From: Ignavibacteriales bacterium
GTDB taxonomy: Bacteria; Bacteroidota; Ignavibacteria; UBA10030; SZUA-254
DNA: 37,719 nucleotides
Assembly (NCBI GenBank): GCA_037441745.1
Contig: JBBIRP010000001.1
Location: forward strand, 1-37,719
Direction: 5' to 3'
Shown here piece by piece: positions 4,085 through 25,957 of this stretch (the stretch's first letter is position 1; every line of letters begins with the position of its first letter). The notes below the pieces were generated by a model. It saw only the letters and a list, made by a program, of their open reading frames with translations, ran no database searches and was not told the origin of the DNA. A program made the translations under genes and the position numbers.

Positions 4085-4176
4085 TCAAAAAAATTTATTA
4101 TATTCATACTTAATATTTTCATAAATTTCTATATCAATCTAAAATTTTGATTATTCAGATACTATAATATTTCTCC

Positions 4177-5667: not shown

Positions 5668-5707
5668 AAATATTTAATTAGAAAAATAGATTAGGAAAGG
5701 AAAATTG

Positions 5708-6448: not shown

Positions 6449-6450
6449 AT

Positions 6451-7191
6451 ATGAATAGAAGAAATTTCATAAACAAATTTATGAAGCAACTTGCATCCAT
6501 AAGCATTATAAATGGTTTTACAAAGAAAGCACACGCAACCCCAAATAGTTACGATGCCTCGAAACATTATTATGAAATGGGAATACAGGTTGATAAATGT
6601 ATCGGGTGTGGTACTTGCATGGATGCCTGTAAAATAGAAAATGATGTCCCAAAAGAACCGTTTTTCTTTAGGACGTGGGTGGAACGCTATATTATAAAAA
6701 AAGATCGTAGTGTTCAGGTCCAAAATATCAAAGGATGGACTGGTGAATTAACCGAAAAAACCACCGAGGCAGACGTTCTAAGAAGCTTTTTTGTTCCAAA
6801 GTTATGCAATCAATGCGATAACCCTCCCTGTGTCCAAGTTTGCCCGGTTGGTGCAACTTTCAAAACGGAGGATGGAGTAATTTTAGTCGATGATACACGT
6901 TGCATAGGTTGCAGGTATTGTATTCAAGCTTGTCCTTATGGTGCTCGATTTTTACATCCAGAAAAGAGTACCGCTGAAAAATGCACATTTTGTTATCATC
7001 GAATTACAAAAGATTTGTTACCTGCTTGCGTTGAAGTTTGCCCAACGCAAGCAAGAATATTCGGAGACCAAAAAAGTCCTGCAAGCCCTCTTAATAGGTT
7101 CAAGCATAGAAGCAAAATTCATGTTTTAAAACCAGCATTAAATACTGAACCCAAAGTATATTATTCAAATCTTGACGGAGAAGTTCGATGA
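6451..7191 (+). CDS. Tat-exported NrfC/HmcB-type ferredoxin subunit with four [4Fe-4S] motifs
   Basis: Twin-arginine motif MNRRNFINKF. The four Cys clusters are CIGCGTCMDAC, CNQCDNPPCVQVCP, CIGCRYCIQACP and CTFCYHR...ACVEVCP. The gene starts 2 nt after the upstream stop. Confidence 0.9.
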   Translation: MNRRNFINKFMKQLASISIINGFTKKAHATPNSYDASKHYYEMGIQVDKCIGCGTCMDACKIENDVPKEPFFFRTWVERYIIKKDRSVQVQNIKGWTGELTEKTTEADVLRSFFVPKLCNQCDNPPCVQVCPVGATFKTEDGVILVDDTRCIGCRYCIQACPYGARFLHPEKSTAEKCTFCYHRITKDLLPACVEVCPTQARIFGDQKSPASPLNRFKHRSKIHVLKPALNTEPKVYYSNLDGEVR

Positions 7192-8402
7192 CCCCAATTA
7201 TTGAACATTTAACTGAGTTAGCAAAACAAGTTTCTGGGTATATCTATCCGAATGAAATTGAAATCCATTGGTCAATACTGATTGTCGTTTATCCATATGT
7301 GACTGGCTTAGTTGCTGGGGCTTTTATCCTCGCATCACTTGTAAAAATATTCAATGTTAAAGAGGTTCAATCTGTTTATCGTCTCTCGCTATTGACAGCA
7401 TTAGCATTTTTATTAGTAGCACCACTACCTTTATTGCTTCATCTCGGCCACCCAGAACGTTCATACGAAATTTTCTTAAACCCAAATCTAAGTTCAGCAA
7501 TGGCAATGTTTGGATTCGTGTATACTTGGTACCTTATGGTCGTCTTACTACTTGAGATTTGGTTCACTTATAGGAAAGATTTGGTTCTCTTATCTCAAGA
7601 AGAAAAATTCCCAATGAACTGGATACACAAAATTGTCGTTTTATTTTCAAGAGATACAAGTGAGAGAGGAACTAATTTTGATAAAAAGGTTCTGAAGATA
7701 ATAACCATCATTGGTATTCCATCTGCATTTTTACTTCATGGTTATGTTGGGTTCATCTTTGGCTCAATCAAAGCAAATCCATGGTGGAGTAGCGTGTTAA
7801 TTCCTATAGTCTTTTTATTCTCTGCGATTGTCTCCGGCATAGCACTTGTGATTTTTTTATATATGATAATAACAACCTACCGAGGTGAACAAATTGATAT
7901 GGGCTGTCTTGATAAAATGGCTTCATACCTTTTTTATGCTGTTATTGTAGATTTTTCACTTGAGATGCTCGATTTTATACATCGTTTATACGAGAGCGAA
8001 GAGTCTATTCATATTTTATCTGAGCTAGTAATGAACAAACTTTTTATCAGCCTCGGTATCATTCAAGTTTTATTGGGTATGATTATACCATTGGGGATAA
8101 TGATTTCTATAAAATTGTTGAAAGTTGAAGCCGAACTTAGAAAATTATTATATTTTGTTTCAATAATACTTATTCAGATTGGAATTTTCGCCACAAGATG
8201 GAATGTTGTGATTGGAGGCCAGATGTTCTCAAAAAGTTTTAGAGGGTTAACCGCATATAAAATGGAACTTGGTGGTATTGAAGGCTTACTTGTTGCTCTG
8301 GGTGTGCTTGTACTGCCGTTCATTATACTCACGATCTTATTCAAAATATTCCCACCCTGGGAGTATAGAAAGAAGAACATCGTTGTTGAAACAGCAAACT
8401 AA
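7188..8402 (+). CDS. NrfD/PsrC-family polytopic membrane quinone-interacting subunit
   Basis: 404 aa, highly hydrophobic with 8-10 predicted helices. ATGA overlap with the upstream FeS gene. Its position after an NrfC-like gene is the classic NrfCD arrangement. Confidence 0.85.
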   Translation: MTPIIEHLTELAKQVSGYIYPNEIEIHWSILIVVYPYVTGLVAGAFILASLVKIFNVKEVQSVYRLSLLTALAFLLVAPLPLLLHLGHPERSYEIFLNPNLSSAMAMFGFVYTWYLMVVLLLEIWFTYRKDLVLLSQEEKFPMNWIHKIVVLFSRDTSERGTNFDKKVLKIITIIGIPSAFLLHGYVGFIFGSIKANPWWSSVLIPIVFLFSAIVSGIALVIFLYMIITTYRGEQIDMGCLDKMASYLFYAVIVDFSLEMLDFIHRLYESEESIHILSELVMNKLFISLGIIQVLLGMIIPLGIMISIKLLKVEAELRKLLYFVSIILIQIGIFATRWNVVIGGQMFSKSFRGLTAYKMELGGIEGLLVALGVLVLPFIILTILFKIFPPWEYRKKNIVVETAN

Positions 8403-8426: not shown

Positions 8427-8888
8427 ATGAATATAAACAACGCACAAATGACATCTGTACATGAAAGTAAACGTAATTTTTTAAAATACATCTTCTCGGG
8501 TAGTATAGTTGCGTTATTTGGTTCAATTCTATATCCAATACTCGCATATCTAATACCACCTAAACAAAGAGAGGTTATTGTATCTAATGTTAAGGCTGGG
8601 AAATTAATCGACATTGAGAAGGATAGTGGTCGAATTATAAAATTTGGGAGAAAGCCTGTAATTCTCATTCGAACAAGCAAAGGTGATTTAAAAGCGTTTT
8701 CTGCAACTTGTACACATTTAGATTGTACAGTCCAATATCGAAAAGATATGGGGATGATATGGTGTGCTTGTCATAATGGTAAATATGATTTGAATGGCAG
8801 AAATGTTTCAGGTCCACCACCGCGCCCATTAGATGAATTTAAAGTGATTGTTCAAGGAGAGGAGGTATTCATCACGAAAAAATCATGA
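8427..8888 (+). CDS. Rieske [2Fe-2S] protein
   Basis: Both Rieske boxes are present: CTHLDCTV and CACHNGKY. An N-terminal TM helix ([22 protein letters not shown]) is preceded by SKRNFLKY, a KR variant of the Tat motif. Confidence 0.9.
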
Positions 8889-9964
8889 AGACATTTTGGA
8901 AAAAATACTACGATTGGATAAACGAGCGAGTTATGCTTGACGATTTGGTCGAGTTTATGGGTAAGAAATATGTACCCGTCCATAGGCATTCAATATGGTA
9001 TTACTTTGGAGGTGTTTCACTCTTTCTCTTTATCGTTCAAGTAATAACTGGTATACTTCTTCTTCTATATTATAAAAGCGGTGAAGAAACAGCTTTCGAG
9101 AGCGTTCAATACCTAATGTCCAAAGTTAATTTTGGGTGGCTTATTCGCTCAGTTCATAGTTGGACTGCAAATCTGTTTATACTCACTGCGATGATTCATA
9201 TGTTTAGTGTATTCTTTGAAAAAGCCTATCGGAAACCAAGAGAAATCACATGGCTTACTGGAATACTTATGTTTTTCTTAGCACTTGGTTTTGGTTTTAG
9301 CGGATATTTACTACCATGGAATGAGCTTGCCTTTTTTGCAACAAAAGTCGGAACCGAGATTGCTGGTGCAGTTCCACTCATTGGGAAACCGATACTGATA
9401 TTTTTGCGGGGTGGAGAGGAAGTCACTGGTGCTACGCTTTCAAGATTTTTCGGTTTCCACGTTGCGGTTTTACCCGGAATTTTTACTGTATTATTAGGAA
9501 TCCACTTAATACTGGTACAACGTCAAGGAATGAGCGAACCACTCGGAATCGTTTCCGAGCAAGGAAAAGAACTGAAGACTATGCCTTTCTTCCCTAATTT
9601 TCTCCTTAGGGACTTACTTTTATGGCTGATTGTTTTAAATATCATAGCAATATTAGCTGTATTTTTCCCATGGGAATTAGGGAAAAAGGCAGATGCTTTT
9701 GCGTCTGCACCAGCCGGTATTAAACCAGAGTGGTATTTTCTGTTTATGTTTCAAACATTAAAATATATTCCCGCCAAACTATGGATTGTTGACGGTGAAG
9801 TTTTTGGCATCATTATGTTTGCTATAACTGGTTTATTGTGGACGTTAGTACCATTTTGGGATAGAAAAAGTTCACGAGGGGAAAGAAATAGACTTATCAA
9901 TTATATCGGTTTGCTGATTGTCATCTACATAATCATTCTAACAATTATTGGCTGGACATCATGA
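8885..9964 (+). CDS. Cytochrome b of a Rieske/cyt b complex (b6-like N-terminal part fused to a subunit-IV-like C-terminal part)
   Basis: Helix B has H-x13-H ([16 protein letters not shown]). Helix D has H-x14-H ([17 protein letters not shown]), which is b6-like spacing. The Qo-site PEWY motif is present ([15 protein letters not shown]). ATGA overlap with the Rieske gene. Confidence 0.92.
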
Positions 9965-11421
9965 AGACAAATTTGCTAATATTTCTTTTTAATGTATTTA
10001 CACAAATTACTTTTTCACAATTAAAAGTTAATTATTGCTTTGAATGTCATGAAAACATCGGTGATAAGGTCGCTGAGTCGTTTAAAAAGGATGTGCATAA
10101 AGAAAAAGGAATAACATGTGCAGGTTGCCATGGTGGCGATGCTGCATCAGAAGTCTTGGAACAGGCAATGTCTAAAGAAAAAGGTTTTATCGGTGTACCA
10201 AAGGGAGATGATATTTCTAAAACATGTGCAAAATGCCATTCAAATGCAAAGATAATGGTGAAAGATTTTAATTCTATTCTCCCAAGAAATCAATACGAAA
10301 GTTTAGTAACAAGTGTACACGGACAACTTTCGAACACGGGAAAAGAACGTATTGTACAATGTACAACATGTCATCAATCACATGGAATCGTATCAGTAAA
10401 AAATCCAACTTCACCAGTTTATCCAATCAATGTTGTAAAAACTTGTGCAAGATGCCACTCGAATGCTACCTATATACGCGCGTATAATCCATCGTTACCA
10501 ATAGATCAATTGGATAAGTATAGAACAAGTGTTCATGGAATTAAAAATTCTCAAGGAGACGTAAAAGTAGCCGCGTGTTCAGATTGTCATGGCAGTCATG
10601 ATATACTTTCAGCCAAAGATACTAAATCAAAAGTGTATGCAATTAATATTCCGAATACATGTGGCGAATGTCATTCTAATTCACAATATATGAAAGAGTA
10701 TCACATTCCTTCGGATCAAGTTAAAAAATTCTCTAAAAGCGTGCATGGAGTTGCGCTTCTTGAGAAGCATGACCTAGGTGCACCAGCGTGTAATGATTGC
10801 CATGGTAATCATGGTGCAGTACCTCCAAATGTAGAATCAATATCAAGTGTATGCGGAATTTGTCATGCAATTAATGCTTCATTATTTTCATCAAGTCCAC
10901 ATAAAAAAGCATTTGACAAAAATAAATTCCCTGAATGTGAAACATGTCATGGTTATCATGAGATTGTTGCTGCTAACGATGAACTTCTCGGAGTATCACC
11001 AGAGGCAGTTTGCAGTAGGTGTCATAAGGAAAATGAAAATCCAAAAGGATATATAGCCGCACAAGAAATGAGACAATTAATTGATAGCTTAGAAAATTAT
11101 GAAAAGTATGCAGATTCGATAGTTACTGAAGCAGAGCAAAAAGGAATGGAAGTTTCGGATATAAAATTTAAACTCCGCGATGTACATCAGTCAAAATTAC
11201 AATCACGAACAACGGTTCACGCATTCGATGTCGTAAAATTTAAAGAAACGGTTGGAAAAGGAATTGAAATAGCTTCAGTTTCGGCAGCTGAGGGTAAAAA
11301 ATCCATCGATGAGTACTATTTCCGCAGGTGGGGTTTAGGAATCGCCACAATAATTATTACAATCGTCGTTATCGCCCTATATCTAACTATACGTCGTATT
11401 GAGCAAAATCAATCTAAATAA
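9961..11421 (+). CDS. 11-haem c-type cytochrome with a signal peptide, a C-terminal helical non-haem region and a TM anchor (c-subunit of the Rieske/cyt b module)
   Basis: I counted 11 exact CxxCH motifs. Signal peptide [20 protein letters not shown]. The last ~110 aa carry no haem motif and end in the helix [25 protein letters not shown] overlap with the cytochrome b gene. Confidence 0.88.
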
Positions 11422-11521: not shown

Positions 11522-11791
11522 ATGGTAGTTAAGAATCAAACAAAACGAACACAAGATAAAGTAATATTTTTTATTCAGATCATTAGTATATCAATGATTT
11601 GGATTTTTGTTTTCGGAATCACCGTTTGGATTATAAACTTGATATCATTATCAGTCAGACTTAAAGACGTTCCTGGCATATCATTAGGTATAAGCATTAT
11701 AGCGATTCCAATTTTTATCACTCTTGCAAGTATATTGACATATGTTTTCGTGGGACTACATAAAAATGAAAATTCCATTGAGAAAAAATAA
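11522..11791 (+). CDS. Hypothetical small membrane protein (two predicted TM helices)
   Basis: An ORF of 89 aa with two hydrophobic stretches, on the same strand as the operon. I recognise no motif, and coding status is uncertain. Confidence 0.35.
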   Translation: MVVKNQTKRTQDKVIFFIQIISISMIWIFVFGITVWIINLISLSVRLKDVPGISLGISIIAIPIFITLASILTYVFVGLHKNENSIEKK

Positions 11792-11802
11792 GGAGTAACA
11801 AT

Positions 11803-12963
11803 ATGCTATTCAGTAAATGGAACATATTTCTATTACTTATAACACCTATTTATCTTTATTCACAAGAAATTAAGCTACCACAAAATCCCCTCAAAGGGCA
11901 AATCATATTTGAGGAAAAAGGATGCATTGAATGCCATGCTATAGGTGGATATGGAGGAACTGAGGGGCCTGATTTAAATCAAGAATTATATTTTGGTAGT
12001 GTACTTGAGTTAGCATCTATAATTTGGAACCATACACCTCAAATGAATCGAAAGTTTCGTCAACTTCGTATGGAACGTCCCTTGCTTTCAGAAGAGGAGA
12101 TGTTAGATTTATTTGGATTTCTTTATTATCTAAGATATTTAGGAGAACCGGGTAGTGTCGCAAAGGGTAAAAAAACATTAGAATCAAAAGGATGTACGGG
12201 ATGCCATAAAGTAGCTGGTAAGGGGGGCAACATCGGTCCTGATTTAGAAAATATTCAGCATTTTGCATCTCCATTATATATAGTACAAGCAATGTGGAAT
12301 CATGGTCCAAAAATGCAAGAACAAATTAAAAAATTAGGAATAAACTTCCCAATCTTAACAGGTCAAGATATCAATAATATAACAACATACATACGCCAAG
12401 CGACAATGGGAAACGTGGAAGTTAGAATGTCGCCCGGTGATCCTGTAAAAGGTAAAGAACTATTTAAAACTAAAGGTTGCAATAACTGTCATATGGTCGA
12501 AGGGAAGGCTAAAAGAATAGGTCCAAATCTCTCAAAAATTGAATTAAAAAAAGGTGTCACCGAAGTAGCAAGCTTAATGTGGAATCACGGACCTATAATG
12601 ATGTCTGCAATGAAAAAAGAATCCATGGATTGGCCTCAATTTAAGGATAATGAAATGGCAGATCTGATTGCTTATTTATATTTCTTGGGTTTCGAAGATA
12701 AACAAGGGGATCCTGTCAGAGGTGAAAAGGTTTTTCAGTCCAATGGATGTATTGATTGCCATAAAAAATCAATTGACAGTAAAGCTCCCGACCTATCAAC
12801 TGTTAAACAATTTCAATCACCAATTCAAATGATACAACTTATGTGGAACCATGCAACAAATATGGAAGATCTTTTTATTATTAATAACAAAGAGTGGCCT
12901 CAATTAGAAACTGAAGATATGCGAGATATTTATGCATACCTTAGGAAAATTACTCAAAAATAA
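11803..12963 (+). CDS. Periplasmic c-type cytochrome made of four tandem class-I monohaem domains
   Basis: Signal peptide. The four CxxCH motifs (CIECH, CTGCH, CNNCH, CIDCH) are spaced ~95 aa apart. Each is followed by GPDL/GPNL/APDL and a conserved [IM]WNHxxxM box. RBS aaggag lies 8 nt upstream. Confidence 0.85.
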   Translation: MLFSKWNIFLLLITPIYLYSQEIKLPQNPLKGQIIFEEKGCIECHAIGGYGGTEGPDLNQELYFGSVLELASIIWNHTPQMNRKFRQLRMERPLLSEEEMLDLFGFLYYLRYLGEPGSVAKGKKTLESKGCTGCHKVAGKGGNIGPDLENIQHFASPLYIVQAMWNHGPKMQEQIKKLGINFPILTGQDINNITTYIRQATMGNVEVRMSPGDPVKGKELFKTKGCNNCHMVEGKAKRIGPNLSKIELKKGVTEVASLMWNHGPIMMSAMKKESMDWPQFKDNEMADLIAYLYFLGFEDKQGDPVRGEKVFQSNGCIDCHKKSIDSKAPDLSTVKQFQSPIQMIQLMWNHATNMEDLFIINNKEWPQLETEDMRDIYAYLRKITQK

Positions 12964-12977
12964 ATAAGAACTAGCAA

Positions 12978-13484
12978 ATGAGAAAATACATTAAATTTAT
13001 AATAAGTATAATTCTAATCTTATTATTCACCTTCATGGCAATCCCATTTGCAGAAGATAAAATTGTTCAACCAATCAATTTCAATCATAAAGTTCATCTT
13101 GAAAACGCGGGATTAAATTGTACTGACTGCCATGTAAATGTAGAAAAAAATGCCCGTGCAATAATACCTTCAATTGAGATTTGTAAAAATTGCCATAGCG
13201 AAAACCCAATATCAAATTCACCAAATGAAAAAGATTTGATTAAATATATTGTTGAGAATAAAGAAATACCTTGGAATCAAATATATAGGGTACCAGATCA
13301 TGTATATTTCTCCCATCGCCGGCATGTAGCAATCGGCGAGCAAAATTGTTCAAAGTGTCACGGCGATATGGCTGATAAAACAACGCCGGTTACGCACCAG
13401 GAAATTCCTATAACAATGAATAACTGTTTAGATTGCCATAGGCAACAAAAAGTGACTAATGATTGTCTTGCATGCCACCGTTGA
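12978..13484 (+). CDS. Membrane-anchored pentahaem c-type cytochrome (ActA/QrcA-like)
   Basis: N-terminal helix IKFIISIILILLFTFMAIPFA. Five CxxCH motifs: CTDCH, CKNCH, CSKCH, CLDCH, CLACH; the last is at the extreme C-terminus. It sits directly upstream of the MopB/FeS/NrfD genes. Confidence 0.8.
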   Translation: MRKYIKFIISIILILLFTFMAIPFAEDKIVQPINFNHKVHLENAGLNCTDCHVNVEKNARAIIPSIEICKNCHSENPISNSPNEKDLIKYIVENKEIPWNQIYRVPDHVYFSHRRHVAIGEQNCSKCHGDMADKTTPVTHQEIPITMNNCLDCHRQQKVTNDCLACHR

Positions 13485-13497
13485 CTTAAAATAATTT

Positions 13498-15954
13498 ATG
13501 GAAATAACACGACGGGATTTCATTAAATTGTTGGGGGGTATTTCGAGTACAATTGCTCTTAATGGTTGTACCTTAGATGATGTTTTTGAGATACCCGAAA
13601 AATTTATCAATAGAATTAAATCTGGACCTGGCATTGAGAAATGGAAAAACACCATATGCGGATTATGCCCGGGCGGATGTGGTATACGCGTTCGTTTAAT
13701 AGATGATATTCCGGTATATGTTAAAGGAAACCCGACCTATCCTGTAAACCAAGGAGGAATGTGCCCGCTGGGTCTTAATGCTTTACATCATCTCTACCAT
13801 CCCGATCGTATAAAAGGTCCAATTAAAAGAATCGGTAACCCGGGTAGCAACAAATGGGAAGCAATTAGTTGGGATGAAACATTAAAATTTATTGCAGACA
13901 ACCTAGTTAAGCTTCGCAATGAAGGTAAATCTCATCAGGTTGCATTCCTCGGTTACGAAGAACGCGGTTTAATGCATCAACATATAAAAAGATTCTTGCG
14001 ATCATATGGCTCACCAAACTATTTTCAATTCTCTCCAAACCAAAATGATACTATTCCATATTTACTTGTACAAGGAAATTCTAAAGTTCCTTCGTATGAT
14101 TTTCTAAACGCAAAACTTATATTAAGTTTTGGATATAATTTTTTAGAGGGAGGTTATTCTCCCATCTATTACACAAAACTTTACAGTCATCATAGAGAAA
14201 CCCAAACGATTTACATTCAAATTGAACCAAGAATGAGTCTCACTGGATCTAATGCAAATAAATGGATACCCATACGGCCAGGAACTTATGGAGCATTGGC
14301 GCTAGGAATTGCTTATGTCTTAATTAGAGAGGAACTCTATAATAAAGAATTTGTAAAAAAATACACATTCGGTTTCGATGATTGGACCGACTTTAATGGT
14401 ATCAAACACTTAGGATTTAAGAATCTTGTACTCGGTAATTATTATCCTGAAAGAGTGACAGAGATAACTGGTATACCCAGTTCAACCATTCTAGAAATTG
14501 CCCGCGATTTTGGTAACACACAACCATCAATAGCCATCGGTGGTAATGGAGCAATTGACAATACCAACGGTACATTCAGCATGATGGCTATTCACAGCCT
14601 AAATGCACTTATTGGAAATTTTGAAAAAAATGGTGGTATATTCTCCATCGATGATCCATCATTTTCAAAACTACCAGAGATTTATGAAGATTTAATTGCG
14701 AAAAATGGTAATAAACAGGAACGAATTGACAAATCTCAAGACGAAAAATTTTTCTTATCCACTTTCTCAATTGAGAGCTTTACAAATAACATTCTTTCTG
14801 ATAAACCTTACCCGTTAAGCATGTTATTTATTTACAATGGAAATCCTCTATTTGAATCTTTAAACCACTCAGAAGTCACCAAAGCACTACAAAAAATTCC
14901 CCTTATAATAAGCTTCGATAGTATAAGAAACGAAACTAGTGAGTATGCACATCTAATTCTACCAGACCATACATTCCTCGAAACGTGGGATGAAGTTTCC
15001 AATGTCCCATCTGTAGGATTTACTCATGTTGGAATACAACAACCTGTGATTGACCCACTATATGATACTAAACAAGTTGGAGATGTGCTTATTAATTTAG
15101 CAAAAAGAATTGGCGGCATGGTTGCTGAATCTTTCCCCTTCGAAAAATATGAAGACTTTCTAAAAAATTCTTTAAAAGGAATTTACGAATCAGGTAAAGG
15201 TGCTATTACCTCTGAAGGCGTCAAAGGTTTATGGTTGGAATATCTACATCAAAGAGGTTGGCACATCGGTCGGTACAATTCATTCGAAGAATTTTGGGAT
15301 CAATTACTAGAAAATGGTGGTTGGTGGAATCCAATCAAAAAAGAAAAAACTCTTGATAAATTTTTCTCAACCACTTCAGGTAAATTTGAGTTTTATTCAA
15401 CCAGATTAAAAAATCAAATTGAAAATCTTGTTGAAAAATCTAGGGGACCTAAATTCTCTCAAAATATGGAACTAATATTAAACAAATTAAATATTACAGC
15501 AAGAGGAGACAGTATTTTTCTTCCACATCACGAACCAGTTCCTTACAATCAGGATTTACCTCTACACCTTGTTACGTTCAACGTTTTAACAAATCCCTCG
15601 GGTCGTGCAGCTCATTTACCACTAATGCAAGAAATGTTCGGTTATATGGTAAGGCAGTACTGGGATTCATGGATTGAAATCAACACCAAAACAGCAAGTG
15701 AGCTCGGAATATCTGATAATTCATGGGTCTGGGTAGAATCTTCAACATCAAGCATAAAAGTTCGTGCAAAATTAAGTCCTGCGATTTCACCAAACGTTGT
15801 TGCAATTCCTTTTGGATTGGGGCATACATCTTACGGTAGATATGCACGAAATCATGGTATTAATCCATATTCGATTATGAGAAATACATACGATTGTATA
15901 AATGGTAGGTCTGCATTAGAAGGAACAAAAGTAAAGATTTCAAAGGCTGTATAA
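13498..15954 (+). CDS. Tat-exported molybdopterin-oxidoreductase-family (MopB) subunit of Psr/ACIII/Qrc type. The FS0 Cys motif is present but no Cys is seen at the expected Mo-ligand position.
   Basis: Tat motif TRRDFIKLLGG. FS0 motif C-x2-C-x3-C-x27-C (CGLCPGGC...GGMCPLG). By hand alignment to ORF 21041-23230, SFAQCRGPR corresponds to SPNQNDTIP, so the Cys ligand is absent. Confidence 0.82.
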   Translation: MEITRRDFIKLLGGISSTIALNGCTLDDVFEIPEKFINRIKSGPGIEKWKNTICGLCPGGCGIRVRLIDDIPVYVKGNPTYPVNQGGMCPLGLNALHHLYHPDRIKGPIKRIGNPGSNKWEAISWDETLKFIADNLVKLRNEGKSHQVAFLGYEERGLMHQHIKRFLRSYGSPNYFQFSPNQNDTIPYLLVQGNSKVPSYDFLNAKLILSFGYNFLEGGYSPIYYTKLYSHHRETQTIYIQIEPRMSLTGSNANKWIPIRPGTYGALALGIAYVLIREELYNKEFVKKYTFGFDDWTDFNGIKHLGFKNLVLGNYYPERVTEITGIPSSTILEIARDFGNTQPSIAIGGNGAIDNTNGTFSMMAIHSLNALIGNFEKNGGIFSIDDPSFSKLPEIYEDLIAKNGNKQERIDKSQDEKFFLSTFSIESFTNNILSDKPYPLSMLFIYNGNPLFESLNHSEVTKALQKIPLIISFDSIRNETSEYAHLILPDHTFLETWDEVSNVPSVGFTHVGIQQPVIDPLYDTKQVGDVLINLAKRIGGMVAESFPFEKYEDFLKNSLKGIYESGKGAITSEGVKGLWLEYLHQRGWHIGRYNSFEEFWDQLLENGGWWNPIKKEKTLDKFFSTTSGKFEFYSTRLKNQIENLVEKSRGPKFSQNMELILNKLNITARGDSIFLPHHEPVPYNQDLPLHLVTFNVLTNPSGRAAHLPLMQEMFGYMVRQYWDSWIEINTKTASELGISDNSWVWVESSTSSIKVRAKLSPAISPNVVAIPFGLGHTSYGRYARNHGINPYSIMRNTYDCINGRSALEGTKVKISKAV

Positions 15955-15970
15955 GTGAAGGAGAATTAGA

Positions 15971-16654
15971 ATGCCAAAATGGGCAATGGTAATAGATCTT
16001 GATAAATGTACTGGTTGCGGTGCTTGCATAGCGGCATGCAAATTAGAAAATAATATTGCTATCGTAGCTCCCGCAGAAGCACAAAACGGACGTGTAATGT
16101 TTTGGTTAGATATAATTAGTTCATATGAAGGTGAGTATCCTGCTGTTAAGGTAAATCGGATACCAAAACCGTGTTTTCATTGCGACGATCCACCATGTAT
16201 TAAAGTATGTCCAGTCGGCGCAACGTACAAAAACGAAGAGGGTTTAGTGGGACAAATCTATCACCGATGCATTGGATGCCGATATTGCATGGCTGCCTGT
16301 CCGTATACCTCAAAAGTTTTCAATTGGGAAAAACCAAGATGGCTTGATGATACTTATTCTTGTTTTAATCCAGACGTTTCATTACGTATGGTAGGTGTTG
16401 TCGAGAAGTGTTCTTTTTGCGCCCATAGGTTGATCAAGATAAAAGAGAATGCAGCTCAGGAAAAGAGAGCAATTCGTGATGGAGAATATATCCCGGCTTG
16501 CATGGAAAACTGTCCGGCGGATGCTATTTACTTCGGAGACATAGATAATAAAGAAAGTGTTGTTCATAACCTCGCTCATAACTTTAGGGCTTACAGAATT
16601 ATGGAAGATTTAGGAGTCGAACCAAAAGTTTATTATCTTTCTAAAAAGTTTTAA
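15971..16654 (+). CDS. Four-cluster [4Fe-4S] ferredoxin subunit (PsrB/ActB2/QrcC-like)
   Basis: Cys motifs CTGCGACIAAC, CFHCDDPPCIKVCP, CIGCRYCMAACP and CSFCAHR...ACMENCP. It has no signal peptide of its own, which fits co-export with the Tat-bearing MopB partner. RBS aaggag upstream. Confidence 0.9.
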   Translation: MPKWAMVIDLDKCTGCGACIAACKLENNIAIVAPAEAQNGRVMFWLDIISSYEGEYPAVKVNRIPKPCFHCDDPPCIKVCPVGATYKNEEGLVGQIYHRCIGCRYCMAACPYTSKVFNWEKPRWLDDTYSCFNPDVSLRMVGVVEKCSFCAHRLIKIKENAAQEKRAIRDGEYIPACMENCPADAIYFGDIDNKESVVHNLAHNFRAYRIMEDLGVEPKVYYLSKKF

Positions 16655-16672
16655 ACAAGTAAATATTTAGAT

Positions 16673-17989
16673 ATGATAGAAAAAGACGAACAAATATTCA
16701 AACCAATATACCAAACAGGTAAAGGTTTTTACATAACATCCGTGATCTTGTTAATGATTATTGCTTGGTCGCTCAATATGTACATAAAACAAGTTTGGTA
16801 TGGACTTGGTGTTACAGGTATGAATCAACCAGTAACGTGGGGTTTCTATATTGTTAACTTTGTATTTTTTATTGGAATAAGTCATGCGGGAACATTGATT
16901 TCTGCAATATTACGGTTATCGAAAGCTGAATGGCGACGACCGATTACTAGAATGGCAGAAGTTATTACAGCAATTGTATTAGCAATTGGAGGCCTTCATC
17001 CAATTATTGATTTAGGACGACCAGATAGATTGTTAAATATTTTTCAATCTGGTAGATTACAATCACCATTATTATGGGATGTTACCAGTATTACTGCTTA
17101 TTTCACTGCAAGTACAGTGTATCTTTATATTCCAATGATTCCCGATATAGCTCGGATTCGGGATCGCGGTGGTAAGCTTAAATGGCTGTATACTTTCATG
17201 GCATGGGGATATCAAGGAACCGAACGTCATAAACGCGTGTTAAATAGAGCGATAAACATTTTAATGGTAATGGTTATACCAATAGCGGTTTCTGTACACA
17301 CTGTGATCTCTTATATTTTTTCAATGACACTTCAGCCAGGATGGCATAGCACAATCTTTGGTCCATACTTTGTAGTAGGTGCAATTTTTTCCGGAATCGC
17401 AGCCCTTTTAATAGTTATGATTGCTTTCAGAAAATTCTATCATCTTGAAAAATATCTTAGGGAAATCCACTTCCAATATTTAGGCACATTACTTTTGATT
17501 ATGTCAATTATTTGGTTCTATTTCACATTCTCCGAATATCTCACCGGAATATTTGGTGCAGAACCACACGAAGTTCAAATAATCATGTATAAATTTACAG
17601 GACCATTCGCTGTCTTTTTCTGGTCAATGGTATTATGTAATTTTATGATACCTGTAATAGTCCTAAGCTTTAAAAAATTTAAAACAATTACAGGAATTTT
17701 TATCGCCTCTTGTACTGTAGTTGTTGGAATGTGGTTGGAACGCTTGGTAATCGTAGTACCATCGTTAGCAAATCCGAGACTTGAACTTCCAATGGGAATA
17801 TATATACCTACATTAACTGAATGGTCATTATTTGCCGGAGGTATTTCAGTTTTTATTCTAGGTTACATGCTCTTCTCAAAATTTTTTCCAATTATTTCGA
17901 TATGGGAAGTCGAAGAAGGCCGTACAGAGGGGCTAAAAGAAGTTGAGGAAAGAATACACAGCTATTTACCAGCCATTTCAAATCATTGA
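16673..17989 (+). CDS. NrfD-family polytopic membrane subunit, long form (ActC/QrcD-like)
   Basis: 438 aa with about 10 hydrophobic helices. It follows the MopB and FeS genes, which is the CISM/ACIII gene order. Confidence 0.85.
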   Translation: MIEKDEQIFKPIYQTGKGFYITSVILLMIIAWSLNMYIKQVWYGLGVTGMNQPVTWGFYIVNFVFFIGISHAGTLISAILRLSKAEWRRPITRMAEVITAIVLAIGGLHPIIDLGRPDRLLNIFQSGRLQSPLLWDVTSITAYFTASTVYLYIPMIPDIARIRDRGGKLKWLYTFMAWGYQGTERHKRVLNRAINILMVMVIPIAVSVHTVISYIFSMTLQPGWHSTIFGPYFVVGAIFSGIAALLIVMIAFRKFYHLEKYLREIHFQYLGTLLLIMSIIWFYFTFSEYLTGIFGAEPHEVQIIMYKFTGPFAVFFWSMVLCNFMIPVIVLSFKKFKTITGIFIASCTVVVGMWLERLVIVVPSLANPRLELPMGIYIPTLTEWSLFAGGISVFILGYMLFSKFFPIISIWEVEEGRTEGLKEVEERIHSYLPAISNH

Positions 17990-18060: not shown

Positions 18061-20295
18061 ATGAATTTAGGTCAAATAAGTATTTTAATTGCTTTTACTG
18101 CATCGCTTGGTGCAGTGATTACTTTCATTAGAAACGAACGATTGATAAACAATCAAAAACAAATTGGCAAAACAAAAATTCATTTTCAGTTTTACTATCT
18201 ATCTGTACTCTTTGGTTTAATAGCTTCAGTTATATTATTCTATTCGATACTTAATCATCAGTTCCAATACTCTTATGTTGTAAAATATAGTTCAAGAGAT
18301 TTACCTTTGATCTACTTAATCTCTGCGTTTTGGGCTGGACAAGAGGGAACATTTTTACTCTGGGCTGTATGGGTAAGTTTTATGGGAATAGTTTTTATTA
18401 AGAAATCAAACGGTACTGATAACTATGCGATAGCAGTTGTAAGCGCTTTTATTGCATTCCTTTATCTTATACTTTTAGTTAAAAGTCCATTCGAAATAAT
18501 TACACCAATTCCTCCAGACGGGCAGGGTCTAAATCCATTATTACAAGATCCGTGGATGGCAATTCATCCACCCATTCTTTTCCTTGGATATGCAGCTACA
18601 ACTTTCCCATTTGCCCTCATAATCTCCGGATTAGCAAGAGGAAATTACTCGAACTGGTACCAATTTGGTTTTTCCTGGTCACTCTTTGCCTCTTTGGCAC
18701 TCGGTGCTGGCATAACGATCGGCGGCTTTTGGGCTTATGAAGTTCTTGGTTGGGGAGGTTACTGGGGATGGGATCCCGTTGAAAATTCCTCACTTGTTCC
18801 CTGGATATCAACACTTGTTTTAATTCACGGATTCGTTGTGTTTAGAGCAAAAGGTTCTCTGCAAAGAACAAACATGTTCATGGCAATTATTGGTTTCATC
18901 CTAGTCTTATACGCCACATTCCTAACTCGCAGCGGAATTCTAGCTGATTTCTCAGTTCACTCATTTGTCGACCTGGGCATCAATAATTATCTAATTGGTA
19001 TTATGATTGTGAGTATTGTGGTTGGCCTTGGTTTATTTGTAAAAAGATTTAGAGAAATTAAATCACCTAAGATAGATACTTCGAGTTTCAATAGAGAATT
19101 ATTACTGTTATTGAGTATGTATGTTCTAGGTGCTGCTGCTTTGTTTACGTTTGTTGGTATGTCGTCTCCAATTATTACAGGATTTATAGGAAAAGCTTCT
19201 CAAGTTGACGTTTCGTTTTACAATAAAGTGAATCTGCCAGTAGCAATCATAATGGCGATCCTTCTTGGAATTACACCACTTCTCGGTTGGATAGAAGATA
19301 GAAAGATTACAATTCTGAAAAGATATTCATTATCTTTAATACTTACTGTATTGTCTTGCGTAATTGCATACGTTGCAGGTGTAACGTCACCAGTTTTACT
19401 TTTATTTGTTGGAGCTGCTGTATTTGCATTGATTTCAAATGTTATCATAATTTTCAGACAGTATCGTGTTGGGTGGTTGCATATAGGTGGCCCACTATCA
19501 CATATCGGTATCGCACTATTGTTAATTGGGATTATTGGTTCAGGCAGTTACGACGAATCCAAACAACTCATACTTAAGCAGAACGAGACTCAATCAATCT
19601 ATGGATATAATTTTACATTTAAAGGTATATCCAACCCACAAGCACTTAAACCTATAATGAACATTGAGGTTTCTGACGGTAAAAATTCATTCCTTGCGCA
19701 ACCAAAACTTTATTTCAGCCAATATAACCAAGCCATGATGAGAGAACCAGATATAAAAGTATTACCACTTAAAGATTTATATATTTCACCTCTTGAGTTA
19801 CAACAATTGGGCTTACCGGGCAATCACAATCCAATGATAGAAATTGCAAAAGGTGAAACAAAAGAAATATTGGGATATAAAATAACTTTTATAAAATTCG
19901 ATGTCGGCCAGCATGCAGAAACTGGTGCAATGTCTGTCGGGGCTGTATTGAATGTCGAATCAGAAAACATTAACAACAGTGTTGTACCTTTACTTACTTT
20001 CGACGAAAAAGGGAATCGAAAACCTATTCCTGCCGAATTACCAATCTTATCTAGTTTTTCCAATCAAGGGCTCAAACCACACGTAACTTTAGATGCTTTA
20101 AGCGTAGAAGAAAAGAAGATTTTATTAGAGTTTCATGGTTTTACTTCGCCTCATCAGGGGATAGAACAAACACAAGCATTAGTTGTTGATGTAAGCATTA
20201 AACCATTGATGATGGTAGTTTGGACTGGAGTAATATTAATAATACTTGGAACACTGATAGCCTGGCGAAGAAGAATGCTTCGAAAAATGGAATGA
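18061..20295 (+). CDS. ccmF: CcmF/NrfE-family cytochrome c haem lyase (System I type)
   Basis: Signature motifs: WAGQEGTFLLW; HPPILFLGY (conserved His); and the Trp-rich WWD motif GGFWAYEVLGWGGYWGWDPVENSSLVPW. 744 aa and polytopic, with a large soluble domain before the last TM helix. Confidence 0.85.
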   Translation: MNLGQISILIAFTASLGAVITFIRNERLINNQKQIGKTKIHFQFYYLSVLFGLIASVILFYSILNHQFQYSYVVKYSSRDLPLIYLISAFWAGQEGTFLLWAVWVSFMGIVFIKKSNGTDNYAIAVVSAFIAFLYLILLVKSPFEIITPIPPDGQGLNPLLQDPWMAIHPPILFLGYAATTFPFALIISGLARGNYSNWYQFGFSWSLFASLALGAGITIGGFWAYEVLGWGGYWGWDPVENSSLVPWISTLVLIHGFVVFRAKGSLQRTNMFMAIIGFILVLYATFLTRSGILADFSVHSFVDLGINNYLIGIMIVSIVVGLGLFVKRFREIKSPKIDTSSFNRELLLLLSMYVLGAAALFTFVGMSSPIITGFIGKASQVDVSFYNKVNLPVAIIMAILLGITPLLGWIEDRKITILKRYSLSLILTVLSCVIAYVAGVTSPVLLLFVGAAVFALISNVIIIFRQYRVGWLHIGGPLSHIGIALLLIGIIGSGSYDESKQLILKQNETQSIYGYNFTFKGISNPQALKPIMNIEVSDGKNSFLAQPKLYFSQYNQAMMREPDIKVLPLKDLYISPLELQQLGLPGNHNPMIEIAKGETKEILGYKITFIKFDVGQHAETGAMSVGAVLNVESENINNSVVPLLTFDEKGNRKPIPAELPILSSFSNQGLKPHVTLDALSVEEKKILLEFHGFTSPHQGIEQTQALVVDVSIKPLMMVVWTGVILIILGTLIAWRRRMLRKME

Positions 20296-20340: not shown

Positions 20341-20369
20341 CCCCTATCAATTATAGATAGGGGTTTTTT
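20341..20369 (+). terminator. Rho-independent terminator closing the respiratory island
   Basis: The stem is cccctatc / gatagggg (8 bp) with a 7-nt loop, followed by tttttt. It lies 46 nt after the ccmF-like stop. Confidence 0.6.
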
Positions 20370-20591: not shown

Positions 20592-21044
20592 ATGAGATCA
20601 GAAATTATTCAAAATCCAGATACACCTATTTATCCAATACGAACCGCTGCAAAGATGCTTGGAATTTCGGTTTATACATTAAGAATGTATGAACGCGCAG
20701 GACTGATTTTACCTTTTCAAAAAGAATCGAGCCATCGACTTTACTCAGATACAGACATAGAACGATTGAAATGCATCCGTCGCGCAATCAATGAAGAGAA
20801 AATTAGTATTGCTGGGATACAAAGAATTCAAGCTTTGATTCCATGCTGGGAAATTGTACAATGCTCTCAACGAGATAGAAACCAATGTGAGGCATTTAGA
20901 AATCATACACAAGCATGTTGGACATTTAATCATTTGAAGAATAAATGTAAGAAACGCAACTGCAGGTCTTGTCCCGTTTACAAAGAATTTATCGACTGTT
21001 CTAAAATTAAAAACAAGATTATTGAGTTAACAGAGAAAATATGA
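20592..21044 (+). CDS. MerR-family transcriptional regulator with a Cys-rich C-terminal domain containing two CW pairs
   Basis: The N-terminus is a MerR HTH (IRTAAKMLGISVYTLRMYERAGLILP...RLYSDTDIERLKCIRR). The C-terminus has 8 Cys in ~55 aa: CWEIVQCSQRDRNQCEAFRNHTQACWTFNHLKNKCKKRNCRSCP...DC. ATGA overlap with the downstream molybdoenzyme gene. Confidence 0.85.
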   Translation: MRSEIIQNPDTPIYPIRTAAKMLGISVYTLRMYERAGLILPFQKESSHRLYSDTDIERLKCIRRAINEEKISIAGIQRIQALIPCWEIVQCSQRDRNQCEAFRNHTQACWTFNHLKNKCKKRNCRSCPVYKEFIDCSKIKNKIIELTEKI

Positions 21045-23230
21045 ATTCGATTTCAAGAAGAAAATTTTTAAAAATATCTGGTGCTACTATTTCAACAGCA
21101 GTTGTGATTAATAAAGTCTCGAAAGCATTAGAAAAAACTGATGCAGCAAATCAGAAAGGTATTAAAAAAATTCCGACTTTTTGCGATTTATGTTTCTGGA
21201 AATGTGGTGCAATTGCTTACGTACGTGATGGTAAATTGTGGAAGATCGAAGGTAACCCGATTGATCCTCTTAGCGGGGGACGGTTATGTCCGCGTGGAAC
21301 AGGTGGAATCGGCGCACATTACGATCCAGATAGATTACGCTCGCCATTGATTCGCACACAAGAACGCGGAAAAGAAATGTGGAAGGAGGTAACATGGGAT
21401 GAAGCTCTAGATTTTATCGTGGAAAAAATGCAGATTATCAAAGCAAAATATGGTCCAGAATCTATGGCAATGTTTAGTCATGGTATTGGTGGAAATTTTT
21501 TAAAGCATACACTGAAAGCATTTGGCGTAATAAATTTTGCCGCGCCCTCATTTGCACAATGCCGCGGACCAAGGGATGTCGGTTTCAAGTTAACCTTTGG
21601 CGAAGACGTCAGTTCCCCGGAACGAACAGATATTAGAAACGCTCAATGTCTCGTGCTTATCGGCAGCCATCTTGGTGAGAATATGCACAACACACAAGTA
21701 CAAGAGTTTGCAGAGGCGATTGATAATGGTGCATCGATCATAGTAGTTGACCCGAGGTTCTCCATCGCTGCAAGTAAAGCAAAATTTTATCTACCAATAA
21801 AACCCGGAACCGATCTCGCGCTTTTGCTTGCATGGATGAATGTCATCGTTACTGAAAATCTCTATGATAAGGAATATGTCGAGAAATATGGATTCGGCTT
21901 TGAACAATTCAAGGCGGAGATTTCGTCTTACACTCCTGAGTGGGCTTACCCAGAAACAGGCATTGAGCCAAAGCTTATCCTTTCAACAGCTCGCGAAATG
22001 GCTCGTTACAAACCAGCGGCTTTAATCCACCCAGGTAGGCACGTCAATTGGTATGGCGATGATGCACAACGAAGTAGAGCAATTGCTTTACTAAATGCAC
22101 TTTTAGGAAGTTGGGGAAGAAAGGGTGGATTCTATTATCCGGTAAGTATGGATGTCCGATCGTATCCATATCCAGCTTATCCAAATCCGACGAAAGAAAA
22201 AGTCGATAATCCTAATAAAAAATATCCGTTCGCAGATGAAGCGATTACAACTGGAATTCGTGAAGCAACTCTCACAGGTAATCCGTATCCTATCAAGGGA
22301 TGGTTTGTTTATGCAACAAACCTGATGCAAGCGTTACCAAATGGAGAAATCACTAAACAGGCGATTCAGAATTTAGATTTGATGGTTGTTGTCGATGTAA
22401 TCCCAAGCGAGATTGCAGGTTGGGCAGATGTAGTATTACCAGAATCGGTTTATCTTGAGAGATATGATGATTTAAATGTTGAGTGGTTTCGTGAACCTTT
22501 CATTGCTTTGAGACAACCAGTCGTTGAATCACCAAATGATCAAAAACCGAATTGGTGGATTGCAAAAAAACTTGCTGAAAAATTAGGACTCGGAAATTAT
22601 TTCCCTTGGAAAGATATTGAGGAATATTTCAATTATCGACTGACTGCGGCTGGATTAAGTTTTGACGAGTTGAGGAAGAACGGTATCATACTCGGGGCTA
22701 AACAGCCAATCTATTTTGATGAAGGCGTACCAGCAGAATTTCCAACTCCATCGGGGAAGATTGAATTCTACTCCCCTCAACTTCAACAAGCGGGATTTGA
22801 TCCTGTGCCGAAATATAAACGTCCTTCAAATGGACCTGTTGGGTCGTTCAGATTGTTATATGGCAGGGCATCCGTACATTCATTTAGTCGAACTCAATCT
22901 AACAGAATTTTATCCGATATGATGTCTGAAAACGAAGTTTGGATTAATACAATTATTGCAGAACGTTACGGGATAAAAAACGGTGACTATATAAAATTAA
23001 AAAATCAGGATGGCGTGATGAGCAATAAAGTAAAAGTCAAAGTAACAGAAAGAATAAGGCCCGATTGTGTTTTCATGGTACACGGTTTTGGCCATACCGC
23101 AAAAGGATTGAAACATGTATACTTAAAAGGTGCAAGCGATGCACAATTGCTTACCCGATACGAAATTGATCCATTAATGGGTGCAACTAGCATGAATATG
23201 AATTTTGTAACAATTGAGATTGGGGATTAA
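21041..23230 (+). CDS. Tat-exported molybdopterin oxidoreductase catalytic subunit, polysulfide/thiosulfate reductase (PsrA/PhsA) family
   Basis: Tat motif SRRKFLKISG. FS0 motif CDLCFWKC-x27-CPRG. A candidate Mo-ligand Cys sits in SFAQCRGPR. The gene is followed by FeS and NrfD genes and by sulfur-transfer genes. Confidence 0.85.
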   Translation: MNSISRRKFLKISGATISTAVVINKVSKALEKTDAANQKGIKKIPTFCDLCFWKCGAIAYVRDGKLWKIEGNPIDPLSGGRLCPRGTGGIGAHYDPDRLRSPLIRTQERGKEMWKEVTWDEALDFIVEKMQIIKAKYGPESMAMFSHGIGGNFLKHTLKAFGVINFAAPSFAQCRGPRDVGFKLTFGEDVSSPERTDIRNAQCLVLIGSHLGENMHNTQVQEFAEAIDNGASIIVVDPRFSIAASKAKFYLPIKPGTDLALLLAWMNVIVTENLYDKEYVEKYGFGFEQFKAEISSYTPEWAYPETGIEPKLILSTAREMARYKPAALIHPGRHVNWYGDDAQRSRAIALLNALLGSWGRKGGFYYPVSMDVRSYPYPAYPNPTKEKVDNPNKKYPFADEAITTGIREATLTGNPYPIKGWFVYATNLMQALPNGEITKQAIQNLDLMVVVDVIPSEIAGWADVVLPESVYLERYDDLNVEWFREPFIALRQPVVESPNDQKPNWWIAKKLAEKLGLGNYFPWKDIEEYFNYRLTAAGLSFDELRKNGIILGAKQPIYFDEGVPAEFPTPSGKIEFYSPQLQQAGFDPVPKYKRPSNGPVGSFRLLYGRASVHSFSRTQSNRILSDMMSENEVWINTIIAERYGIKNGDYIKLKNQDGVMSNKVKVKVTERIRPDCVFMVHGFGHTAKGLKHVYLKGASDAQLLTRYEIDPLMGATSMNMNFVTIEIGD

Positions 23231-23232
23231 TC

Positions 23233-23772
23233 ATGGCACGATTTGGAATGGTGATTGACACGAAAAAATGTGTCGGCTGCATGGATTGTGTTGTCGCTTG
23301 CAAAACTGAAAACGATGTACCCGAAGCATTCAATCGTGATTGGATTGTGCAGGATGTGCGTGGTAAAAATCCCAATCTCCATATGGAAATCAGAACCGAG
23401 CGATGCAATCATTGTGATCATCCTCCGTGTGTTTACTGTTGTCCAACTGGCGCAAGCCATGTACACGATCTCGGTGGTATCGTACTTGTGACTCACGATT
23501 TATGTATCGGTTGCAAGGCATGTCTCGCGTCATGCCCGTATGATGCACGATTTATTCATCCCGAGGGCTATGCAGATAAATGTACATTTTGTGTTCACCG
23601 GGTTGAAAAGGGGTTGGATCCAGCATGTGTTTCTGTCTGTCCGACTCATTGCATGTACTTCGGAGATTTTGATGATCCTAACAGTCAAGTAAGCAAGCTT
23701 CTTGCATCAAGGGAAAATCATTCATTGATTCCCGAAACTGGGACAAGACCACAAATATTTTATTTAGTGTGA
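23233..23772 (+). CDS. Four-cluster [4Fe-4S] electron-transfer subunit (PsrB/PhsB-like)
   Basis: Cys motifs CVGCMDCVVAC, CNHCDHPPCVYCCP, CIGCKACLASCP and CTFCVHR...ACVSVCP. Confidence 0.9.
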   Translation: MARFGMVIDTKKCVGCMDCVVACKTENDVPEAFNRDWIVQDVRGKNPNLHMEIRTERCNHCDHPPCVYCCPTGASHVHDLGGIVLVTHDLCIGCKACLASCPYDARFIHPEGYADKCTFCVHRVEKGLDPACVSVCPTHCMYFGDFDDPNSQVSKLLASRENHSLIPETGTRPQIFYLV

Positions 23773-23778
23773 GATAAT

Positions 23779-24726: not shown

Positions 24727-24817
24727 TTAGCTTTGTAGCTTTCATGGTTTAATACATAACCATAAGGTACGCTGGAAATGTAAAAAGAGTAAAAAAATAA
24801 AATAGAAGGATTTAATT

Positions 24818-25956: not shown

Positions 25957-25957
25957 A

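Follow-up and report, generated by a model that had tools for sequence, protein, structure and literature searches.

A relative of alternative complex III and Qrc, of Ignavibacteria type, with a predicted non-catalytic MopB subunit that keeps its FS0 cysteines

Introduction

In two characterised complexes that link quinones and cytochromes, alternative complex III (ACIII) and Qrc, a molybdoenzyme subunit has been turned into a cofactor-less scaffold. In ACIII, the B1 domain of ActB has no prosthetic groups, and the haem wire branches at the proximal iron-sulfur (FeS) cluster, leaving the other three clusters without known role (PMC5928083). Qrc is an electrogenic menaquinone reductase (PMC6303296), and its MopB-like subunit QrcB has been described as cofactor-less (PMC13059093). 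Here we analyse a stretch of 37,719 nt from an Ignavibacteriales bacterium (contig JBBIRP010000001.1; hereafter the window), in which the genes at 12978-17989 encode, in this order, a pentahaem cytochrome c, a MopB-fold protein, a four-cluster FeS protein and an NrfD-type membrane protein. A preliminary description had pointed to ActB and QrcB as MopB relatives that lost the molybdenum cofactor, and the publications on both bear this out.

The MopB-like domain of the complex I subunit NuoG/Nqo3 has lost the molybdenum-bis(pyranopterin guanine dinucleotide) (Mo-bisPGD) cofactor and has kept an FS0-equivalent [4Fe-4S] cluster, N7. This subunit is cytoplasmic and belongs to another, formate dehydrogenase-like MopB lineage. 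The loss of Mo-bisPGD in Nqo3 has been noted in a study which also places ActB as sister to ArrA/ArxA (PMC10100899). Closer to the present locus, a CX2CX3CX27C motif was reported in 2015 for ActB1 of iron-oxidising bacteria (PMC4643136), and candidate phylum MBNT15 was described to encode "ActABCD plus ActE-like protein with four haems" beside cytochrome-FeS-NrfD modules, in a cluster with a proposed role in Fe(III) reduction (PMC9386147).

Results

The four core subunits are related to those of ACIII and Qrc

In searches of the Protein Data Bank, the NrfD subunit matched ActC over its full length (8k9e_C and 6f0k_C, 247 bits each; 6lod_C, 243 bits; 6btm_C, 236 bits), and PsrC went undetected in this search. 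The best match of the FeS subunit was the B2 domain of ActB (6f0k_B, 196 bits), followed by ArrB (136 bits) and PsrB (117 bits), and the pentahaem subunit matched best to ActA chains with 75-88 bits (8k9e_A, 88; 6lod_A and 6f0k_A, 80). MopB found its best match in ArrA (6cz7, 279 bits), with the ACIII B1 domains scoring merely 26-68 bits, which fits the published position of ActB beside ArrA/ArxA (PMC10100899).

Among the NCBIfam models, QrcA ranked first for the pentahaem subunit (118 bits; cut-off 180) and QrcC for the FeS subunit (277 bits; cut-off 400). MopB scored 309 bits with PhsA, 305 with ArrA and 301 with QrcB, each below cut-off; its match to the QrcB model (NF041783, cut-off 440) spans model positions 1-517 of 695, and proteins meeting this cut-off score 444-542 bits. 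One such protein, P0176, is 39% identical to the window MopB (491 bits). The NrfD subunit reached 32.5 bits on the QrcD model (cut-off 570), so that all four subunits stay under the NCBIfam equivalog cut-offs. This membrane subunit is not of QrcD type: its identity to QrcD, taken from a true Qrc locus in a deltaproteobacterial metagenome-assembled genome (MAG; L006), is 23%, and that to its counterparts in related loci of other phyla is 59-63%. Judged by sequence, the A, B2 and C subunits are of ACIII type, QrcB and ArrA are closer relatives of B1 than the canonical ACIII B1 is, and the locus is an Ignavibacteria-type relative of ACIII and Qrc, which sustains the earlier reading of the genes as a Qrc/ACIII-like four-subunit complex. 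The features are listed in Table 1.

Table 1. Coordinates of the core genes, of motifs within MopB and of the associated upstream genes in the window
Feature	Position	Strand	Remarks
ActA/QrcA-like pentahaem cytochrome c	12978..13484	+	168 aa; five CxxCH; one N-terminal transmembrane helix
MopB-fold subunit, ActB1/QrcB-like, Tat-exported, predicted non-catalytic	13498..15954	+	818 aa
Tat motif RRDFIK, residues 5-10 of MopB	13510..13527	+	Sequence reading
FS0 [4Fe-4S] motif, Cys54-x2-Cys57-x3-Cys61-x27-Cys89 of MopB	13657..13764	+	Predicted from motif
Former Mo-ligand loop of MopB, residues 176-188, FQFSPNQNDTIPY	14023..14061	+	No Cys, selenocysteine, Ser or Asp ligand
Four-cluster FeS subunit, ActB2/QrcC-like	15971..16654	+	227 aa; four complete Cys groups
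ActC-type NrfD membrane subunit, predicted quinone site	16673..17989	+	438 aa; PF03916; about 10 hydrophobic segments
89-aa protein, candidate small membrane subunit	11522..11791	+	Two transmembrane helices; ActD-like by position only
386-aa periplasmic cytochrome c	11803..12963	+	Four class-I CxxCH domains; Pfam Cytochrom_C, 110 bits, three stretches
486-aa cytochrome c, likely periplasmic partner, weaker association	9961..11421	+	11 CxxCH; motif count

The MopB subunit keeps FS0 and lacks a molybdenum ligand

The C-x2-C-x3-C-x27-C motif noted previously in MopB was found intact, and its four cysteines were invariant in all 115 full-length sequences (42-79% identity) of the orthologue set, so that the FS0 site did not prove to be a peculiarity of this one protein. 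The AlphaFold2 model of MopB had a predicted local distance difference test score (pLDDT) of 90 overall and of about 90 across residues 50-100, which comprise the FS0 region, and in a Foldseek search it superposed on ArrA with a template modelling (TM) score of 0.79. FS0 spacing is the same as in ArrAB (6CZ7), and Pfam recognises the domains Molybdop_Fe4S4, Molybdopterin and Molydop_binding.

The hand alignment of the preliminary description, in which neither Cys nor selenocysteine nor Ser stood at the ligand position, agreed with phmmer alignments to two catalytic enzymes. Against ArrA, over the full length, a three-residue deletion in MopB falls exactly at the ligand S-V-Cys, and against PsrA of T. 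thermophilus Asn183 faces the ligand Cys. As the MopB open reading frame is uninterrupted and has no in-frame TGA, selenocysteine is excluded, and no conserved Cys, Ser or Asp was found in the ligand stretch among the 115 orthologues. The loop itself is variable, with Asn183 present in 89 and Asp184 in 58 of these proteins, and both residues vary in the wider family too, which speaks against the suggestion that the Asp of the sequence QND replaces the lost ligand. On the strength of these alignments, the ligand-less, FS0-bearing MopB is a family trait and not a sequencing accident.

Mean column conservation of MopB in the orthologue set was 68%, and a Tat motif of the form RRx[FLIVM] was present in 113 of the 115 sequences. 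A lipobox-like Cys does follow the Tat signal of the window protein as noted before; it recurs in only 47 of the orthologues, which leaves lipidation as a weak proposal.

Retention of FS0 without a ligand is the majority state

An HMMER search of 1.84 billion cluster representatives (50%-identity clusters) returned 1529 proteins at E <1e-30. Counts were made on the best 150 of the 1529 (370-750 bits, all above ArrA), 137 of which were long enough to align and 132 of which included the N-terminal region. FS0 was intact in 120 of these 132 representatives and was combined with absence of Cys from the ligand column in 113, only 10 having Cys in this column. The FS0 state of QrcB was judged on proteins meeting the NCBIfam cut-off, for which two sets of 10 were scanned. 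Three proteins above the cut-off, from Deltaproteobacteria/Desulfobacterales MAGs, are without FS0 (CGVS, SGIS and -CCT at this site); their nearest tree neighbours keep FS0, and nine of the ten neighbours tested also meet the QrcB cut-off. Across the sequences compared, most members of a large radiation have a ligand-less, FS0-bearing MopB, and members of the QrcB family have it too.

The preliminary description had considered the protein an intermediate on the path from Psr-like enzymes to ACIII/Qrc. This idea did not hold, as the state is that of the majority. Moreover, the window clade has lost Lys252, Arg350 and Asp411, all three of which are retained by the FS0-less QrcB proteins; with FS0 kept and residues lost that FS0-less QrcB retains, it is a mosaic of features rather than a step on a straight path. 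The trait is already contained in published ACIII-like clusters, and the residual novelty lies in the role of an invariant FS0 in a ligand-less MopB.

Degeneration of the presumed former active site

Beyond the ligand, ArrA, PsrA and every Cys-bearing relative have a Lys/Arg behind the fourth FS0 Cys, within the motif CP[KR]G, for which the window has Leu91, and this position is occupied by Leu in 72, Ser in 20, Met in 11 and Lys in 3 of the 115 orthologues. Fifteen polar or charged positions, chosen for conservation in at least seven of eight catalytic relatives, are replaced in MopB, including Arg154, His178, Cys182, Tyr197, Lys252, Asp264 (PGTD), Arg350, Asp411, Glu701 and Arg703. The replacements are often aromatic or aliphatic, and most such positions vary within the clade. 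Compared to ArrA, the Cys193 loop is deleted, the arsenate-site motif RGRY reads GYEE, the Arg of CPR is Leu, and His189 and Lys198 are replaced. With the Cys loop, RGRY, His189 and Lys198 all missing, identity as an arsenate reductase was rejected.

The gene context of a Cys-bearing sister protein, P0185, differs as well: MoeA, MobB and a TorD/NarJ-type chaperone are encoded around it and a cytochrome is lacking, whereas no TorD/NarJ-type chaperone was found among the window genes, where an ActA-like cytochrome is encoded instead. In the genome pairs compared, MopB is also the least conserved of the three core subunits, with 37-38% identity to its counterpart in a Tectomicrobia MAG (L010) compared to 53% for the FeS and 63% for the ActC-like subunit. 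Taken at the level of residues and gene context, MopB appears to have lost the Mo/W-bisPGD site and to descend from Arr-like molybdoenzymes.

The complex is part of a larger conserved unit

The core genes are separated by intergenic gaps of 13-18 nt and belong to a long run of same-strand respiratory genes in a window of about 35% GC, whose proteins have their closest relatives in Ignavibacteria/Bacteroidota MAGs. On the forward strand, the sole convincing terminator-like hairpin lies at 20341-20363, past a CcmF/NrfE-like gene. A promoter scan, the models of which do not cover Bacteroidota promoters, gave 54 sites against 53.9 expected.

Related loci (L002, L003, L005, L006, L008, L009, L010) were compared with the window, and the MopB gene was present in every one examined. 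L002 and L003, with MopB proteins 63% identical to that of the window, have the same gene order, the two extra genes directly upstream of the core included, and further multihaem cytochromes and proteins without family assignment nearby. In L005 (MopB 42% identical), genes for a two-helix protein and a four-haem cytochrome stand downstream of the NrfD gene. For the 89-aa protein, genes of homologues adjoin the complex in L002 (59% identity), L005 (48%) and L010 (43%; E 5e-14), and L008 gave a marginal match (24%, E 0.001). The four-haem cytochrome has homologues beside the complex in L002 (70%), L005 (49%), L008 (44%) and L010 (37%), each with four CxxCH, and the 11-haem cytochrome has homologues in the clusters of L002 (65%) and L005 (36%, downstream there). 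On this comparative evidence the unit starts at 11522, comprises six genes instead of the four of the core and is met again across phyla, in L002, L005, L008 and L010. The four-haem cytochrome is a candidate electron acceptor or donor, in an ActE-like role multiplied fourfold.

Similarities and differences to described complexes

Like ACIII (6F0K, 6BTM, 6LOD, 8K9E), the window encodes an N-terminally anchored pentahaem ActA-like subunit, a MopB-like domain without Mo ligand, a four-cluster FeS module and a 10-helix ActC-type subunit. In the latter, seven of ten quinol-pocket residues of R. marinus ActC are identical (W, I, F, P, L, D and S); ActC His139 and Asp253 are replaced by Asp and Ile, respectively, a variant common to L002, L005, L008 and L010. 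Unlike in ACIII, ActB is split into two proteins, and B1 keeps the FS0 cysteines at sequence level. The FeS subunit contains all 16 ligand cysteines, predicting four [4Fe-4S] clusters, and its group-III motif is CIGCRYC, compared to CIGTRYC/CVGTKYC in ACIII (6f0k_B, 6lod_B, 8k9e_B), where Thr in place of the second group-III Cys is the source of the membrane-proximal [3Fe-4S] cluster; this exchange is absent in the window. As the subunit has no signal peptide of its own, it is presumably co-exported with the Tat-bearing MopB. No Pfam match to ActD (PF11821) was obtained in the window; the 89-aa protein matched no Pfam family at all, and its homology to ActD was not demonstrated. A four-haem cytochrome replaces the monohaem ActE, ActF is missing with no second NrfD gene adjoining the complex (the NrfD gene at 7188-8402 belongs to a separate cytochrome-FeS module), and the locus is not beside an oxidase.

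With QrcABCD the window shares the gene order of multihaem cytochrome c, ligand-less MopB-like protein, FeS protein and NrfD protein, to which it adds the two-helix protein and the four-haem cytochrome c as conserved partners. In contrast to the Desulfobacterota, where Qrc acts in sulfate respiration as a cytochrome c3:menaquinone oxidoreductase, the host is not a sulfate reducer, and family scans of the window proteins detected no dsr, hydrogenase or formate dehydrogenase. The ACIII-like clusters of iron oxidisers (PMC4643136), compared by description, share the split B1 with CX2CX3CX27C and contain actDEF, which the window does not. The MBNT15 cluster (PMC9386147) matches the architecture of the window as far as its published description goes, its neighbourhood of cytochrome-FeS-NrfD modules and cytochrome b plus multihaem clusters resembling the window at 117-8402.

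Two further loci mark the range of the group. The Acidobacteria MAG locus L009 (5451-11067; MopB P0171) encodes a split, FS0-bearing B1, an ActD recognised by Pfam, CIGTRFC in B2 and an ActC-like subunit with the canonical His/Asp/Asp triad. As this locus is canonical-like and the window is variant, the radiation spans both forms. The L009 cluster adjoins a NarG-type nitrate reductase gene, with no oxidase beside it. In the Tectomicrobia locus L010 (5386-12074), genes for ActA-like, B1, B2 and ActC-like subunits are followed by those for an 82-aa protein and a four-haem cytochrome c. Its B1 (P0132) has a Cys near the ligand column (IRLNCLQT) and keeps the CPKG Lys, Asp264, Arg350 and Arg703. 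P0159 and P0232 were grouped with P0132 as B1 proteins of this type, and from their residues the complexes of all three could be ACIII-like and still molybdenum-binding.

Neighbouring genes

Genes for a Rieske protein, a cytochrome b and the 11-haem cytochrome c (8427-11421) lie directly upstream of the complex, in an order kept in L002/L003. Directly behind qrcD, the true Qrc locus L006 likewise carries genes for a Rieske protein and a cytochrome b, and the pairing of Rieske/cytochrome b with ACIII/Qrc-type complexes may be recurrent. Further upstream (5705-8402) lies a separate module, conserved in L002, in which an 8-haem cytochrome c is combined with a 246-aa four-cluster FeS protein of Tat type and an NrfD protein of 404 aa. 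The module is reminiscent of the NrfCD-type quinol dehydrogenases without catalytic subunit that have been proposed for Melioribacter and MBNT15 (PMC3534657, PMC9386147). At 117-5667, genes for two cytochrome b561-like membrane proteins enclose that for a 694-aa cytochrome with 19 CxxCH, and behind them comes the gene for a NapC/NirT-type cytochrome of 496 aa with six CxxCH and one CxxxCH. The TTG start listed for the 19-haem reading frame places about 60 nt of it within the preceding gene and may be incorrect.

A stand-alone haem lyase gene of the CcmF/NrfE family (18061-20295) begins 71 nt past the NrfD gene and was not found at the corresponding position in L002, L005, L008 and L010; the lyase may serve an unusual haem-attachment site of a neighbouring cytochrome. 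Encoded in the region 20592-26608 are a MerR-family regulator whose C-terminal half is rich in Cys, a PsrABC-type reductase with a Cys ligand, a YeeE/YedE sulfur transporter that is split, and a rhodanese. The arrangement of MerR and psrABC matches Mros1773-1776 of Melioribacter roseus, the psrA of which is reported to be arsenate-induced (PMC3534657, PMC5492636). At 35044-37719, running past the window end, lies a gene for a large secreted protein with a CotH kinase domain, BNR/Sortilin-type repeats and a type IX secretion system C-terminal sorting domain, which speaks for the contig having come from Bacteroidota/Ignavibacteria.

Discussion

From the subunit homologies, motifs and conservation described above we infer the loss of the cofactor, an electron path, its direction and a role for FS0. 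The complex is probably an ACIII/Qrc-type menaquinol:cytochrome c oxidoreductase in which MopB is a non-catalytic scaffold. Menaquinol or menaquinone would be bound by the ActC-type subunit near the periplasmic face, and menaquinol would be oxidised there. Modelled on the ACIII structure, in which the wire branches at the proximal cluster (PMC5928083), electrons would pass from the quinone site to the membrane-proximal [4Fe-4S] cluster of the FeS subunit and on to the ActA-like haems, from where they would reach the co-encoded four-haem class-I cytochrome c and further multihaem cytochromes of the neighbourhood. The two-helix 89-aa protein is a probable extra membrane subunit. MopB would act mainly as Tat-export carrier and scaffold for the FeS subunit, with FS0 placed at the far end of the FeS chain, on a side branch off the quinone-to-haem path, and most likely kept for stability of the fold or interface, or as an electron-holding side branch resembling N7. 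The direction from menaquinol to cytochrome c would be that of ACIII, with an anaerobic or microaerobic network of periplasmic cytochromes as recipient, and the surrounding genes, as far as their families tell, fit a periplasmic/extracellular electron-transfer network.

Several points weigh against this assignment. In its FeS subunit, with [4Fe-4S] clusters throughout, and in its ActC triad, with Asp for His139 and Ile for Asp253, the complex departs from quinol-oxidising ACIII. Arsenite oxidase binds Mo-bisPGD without a protein ligand, so that a missing ligand alone is no proof of a missing cofactor. MopB retains the nucleotide-fold motifs E/D-P-R, P-G-T, G-N-P and D-x-x-x-E-T...L-P and still scores 134 bits with Pfam Molybdopterin and 52 bits with Molydop_binding. 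Strict conservation of FS0 throughout the family is easier explained by electrons travelling past it, and the tree used here was built by neighbour joining and carries no support values.

A serious rival, to which we assign a real yet clearly smaller chance, assembles the same parts into an enzyme working in the opposite, Qrc-like direction, in which periplasmic cytochromes charged from donors such as H2, formate, Fe(II) or reduced sulfur would electrogenically reduce menaquinone. QrcA, QrcB and QrcC being the best or near-best NCBIfam models would suit such a function, as would the all-Cys motif CxGCRYC that the window FeS subunit has in common with QrcC of L006, unlike the [3Fe-4S] type of ACIII, and the Rieske/cytochrome b genes adjoining the complex in both loci. 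The membrane subunit, however, is of ActC type (247 bits, compared to 32 bits on the QrcD model and 23% identity to QrcD), the partner cytochrome belongs to class I, which usually implies a high potential, and the window holds no hydrogenase or formate dehydrogenase genes.

It is unlikely that MopB is still a Mo/W-bisPGD enzyme, either free of a protein ligand or coordinating the metal via Asn183/Asp184, with a five-cluster wire linking the quinone pool and a periplasmic substrate. Such an enzyme would account for the invariance of FS0 in the 115 orthologues, for the retained fold motifs and Pfam scores and for the superposition of the model on ArrA (TM 0.79), and P0132, in the same ActA-B1-B2-C context, keeps the near-ligand Cys, the Lys and Asp264/Arg350/Arg703. 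On the other hand, Asn183 and Asp184 are unconserved, Leu replaces the Lys/Arg between FS0 and pterin, and the 15 polar positions conserved in the catalytic relatives are replaced, most of them being variable; MopB changes faster in sequence than the FeS and membrane subunits, and the window is without the TorD/NarJ chaperone that accompanies MoeA and MobB in the catalytic sister locus. Still a little harder to credit is a working five-cluster branch, formed by the four B2 clusters and FS0, that leads into MopB and ends at a retained pterin or a second partner or substrate site. If this were true, the complex would be an oxidoreductase of the branched type quinone:cytochrome c / X, a function would be found for FeS2-4, the "elusive" dead-end clusters of ACIII, and relatives such as P0132 (L010), with a near-ligand Cys and the Lys, Asp and Arg residues in a like operon, would be genuine molybdenum-containing ACIII-like complexes. 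That the MopB gene is a decaying relic without role in the complex is hardly conceivable in spite of the degenerated active-site residues, as the 818-codon frame is intact, the Tat motif is found in 113 of 115 and FS0 in all orthologues at 68% mean column conservation, the gene is present in all related loci examined, and the FeS subunit, without signal peptide, needs a Tat-bearing partner; a pseudogene was therefore rejected on conservation.

With MopB as a non-catalytic scaffold, the locus stands for a group that is very large and wide, comprising Ignavibacteria/Bacteroidota, Calditrichia, Acidobacteriota, Tectomicrobia and Deltaproteobacteria MAGs, and mostly unstudied. It displays a graded series of cofactor loss, from proteins with Cys, Lys and FS0, through those with FS0 and Lys that have lost Cys and those with FS0 only, to those with none. 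Members are annotated merely as "molybdopterin-dependent oxidoreductase" or "selenocysteine-containing dehydrogenase", and naming them ACIII/Qrc-type would keep metabolic reconstructions from mistaking them for reductases of arsenate, thiosulfate or tetrathionate.

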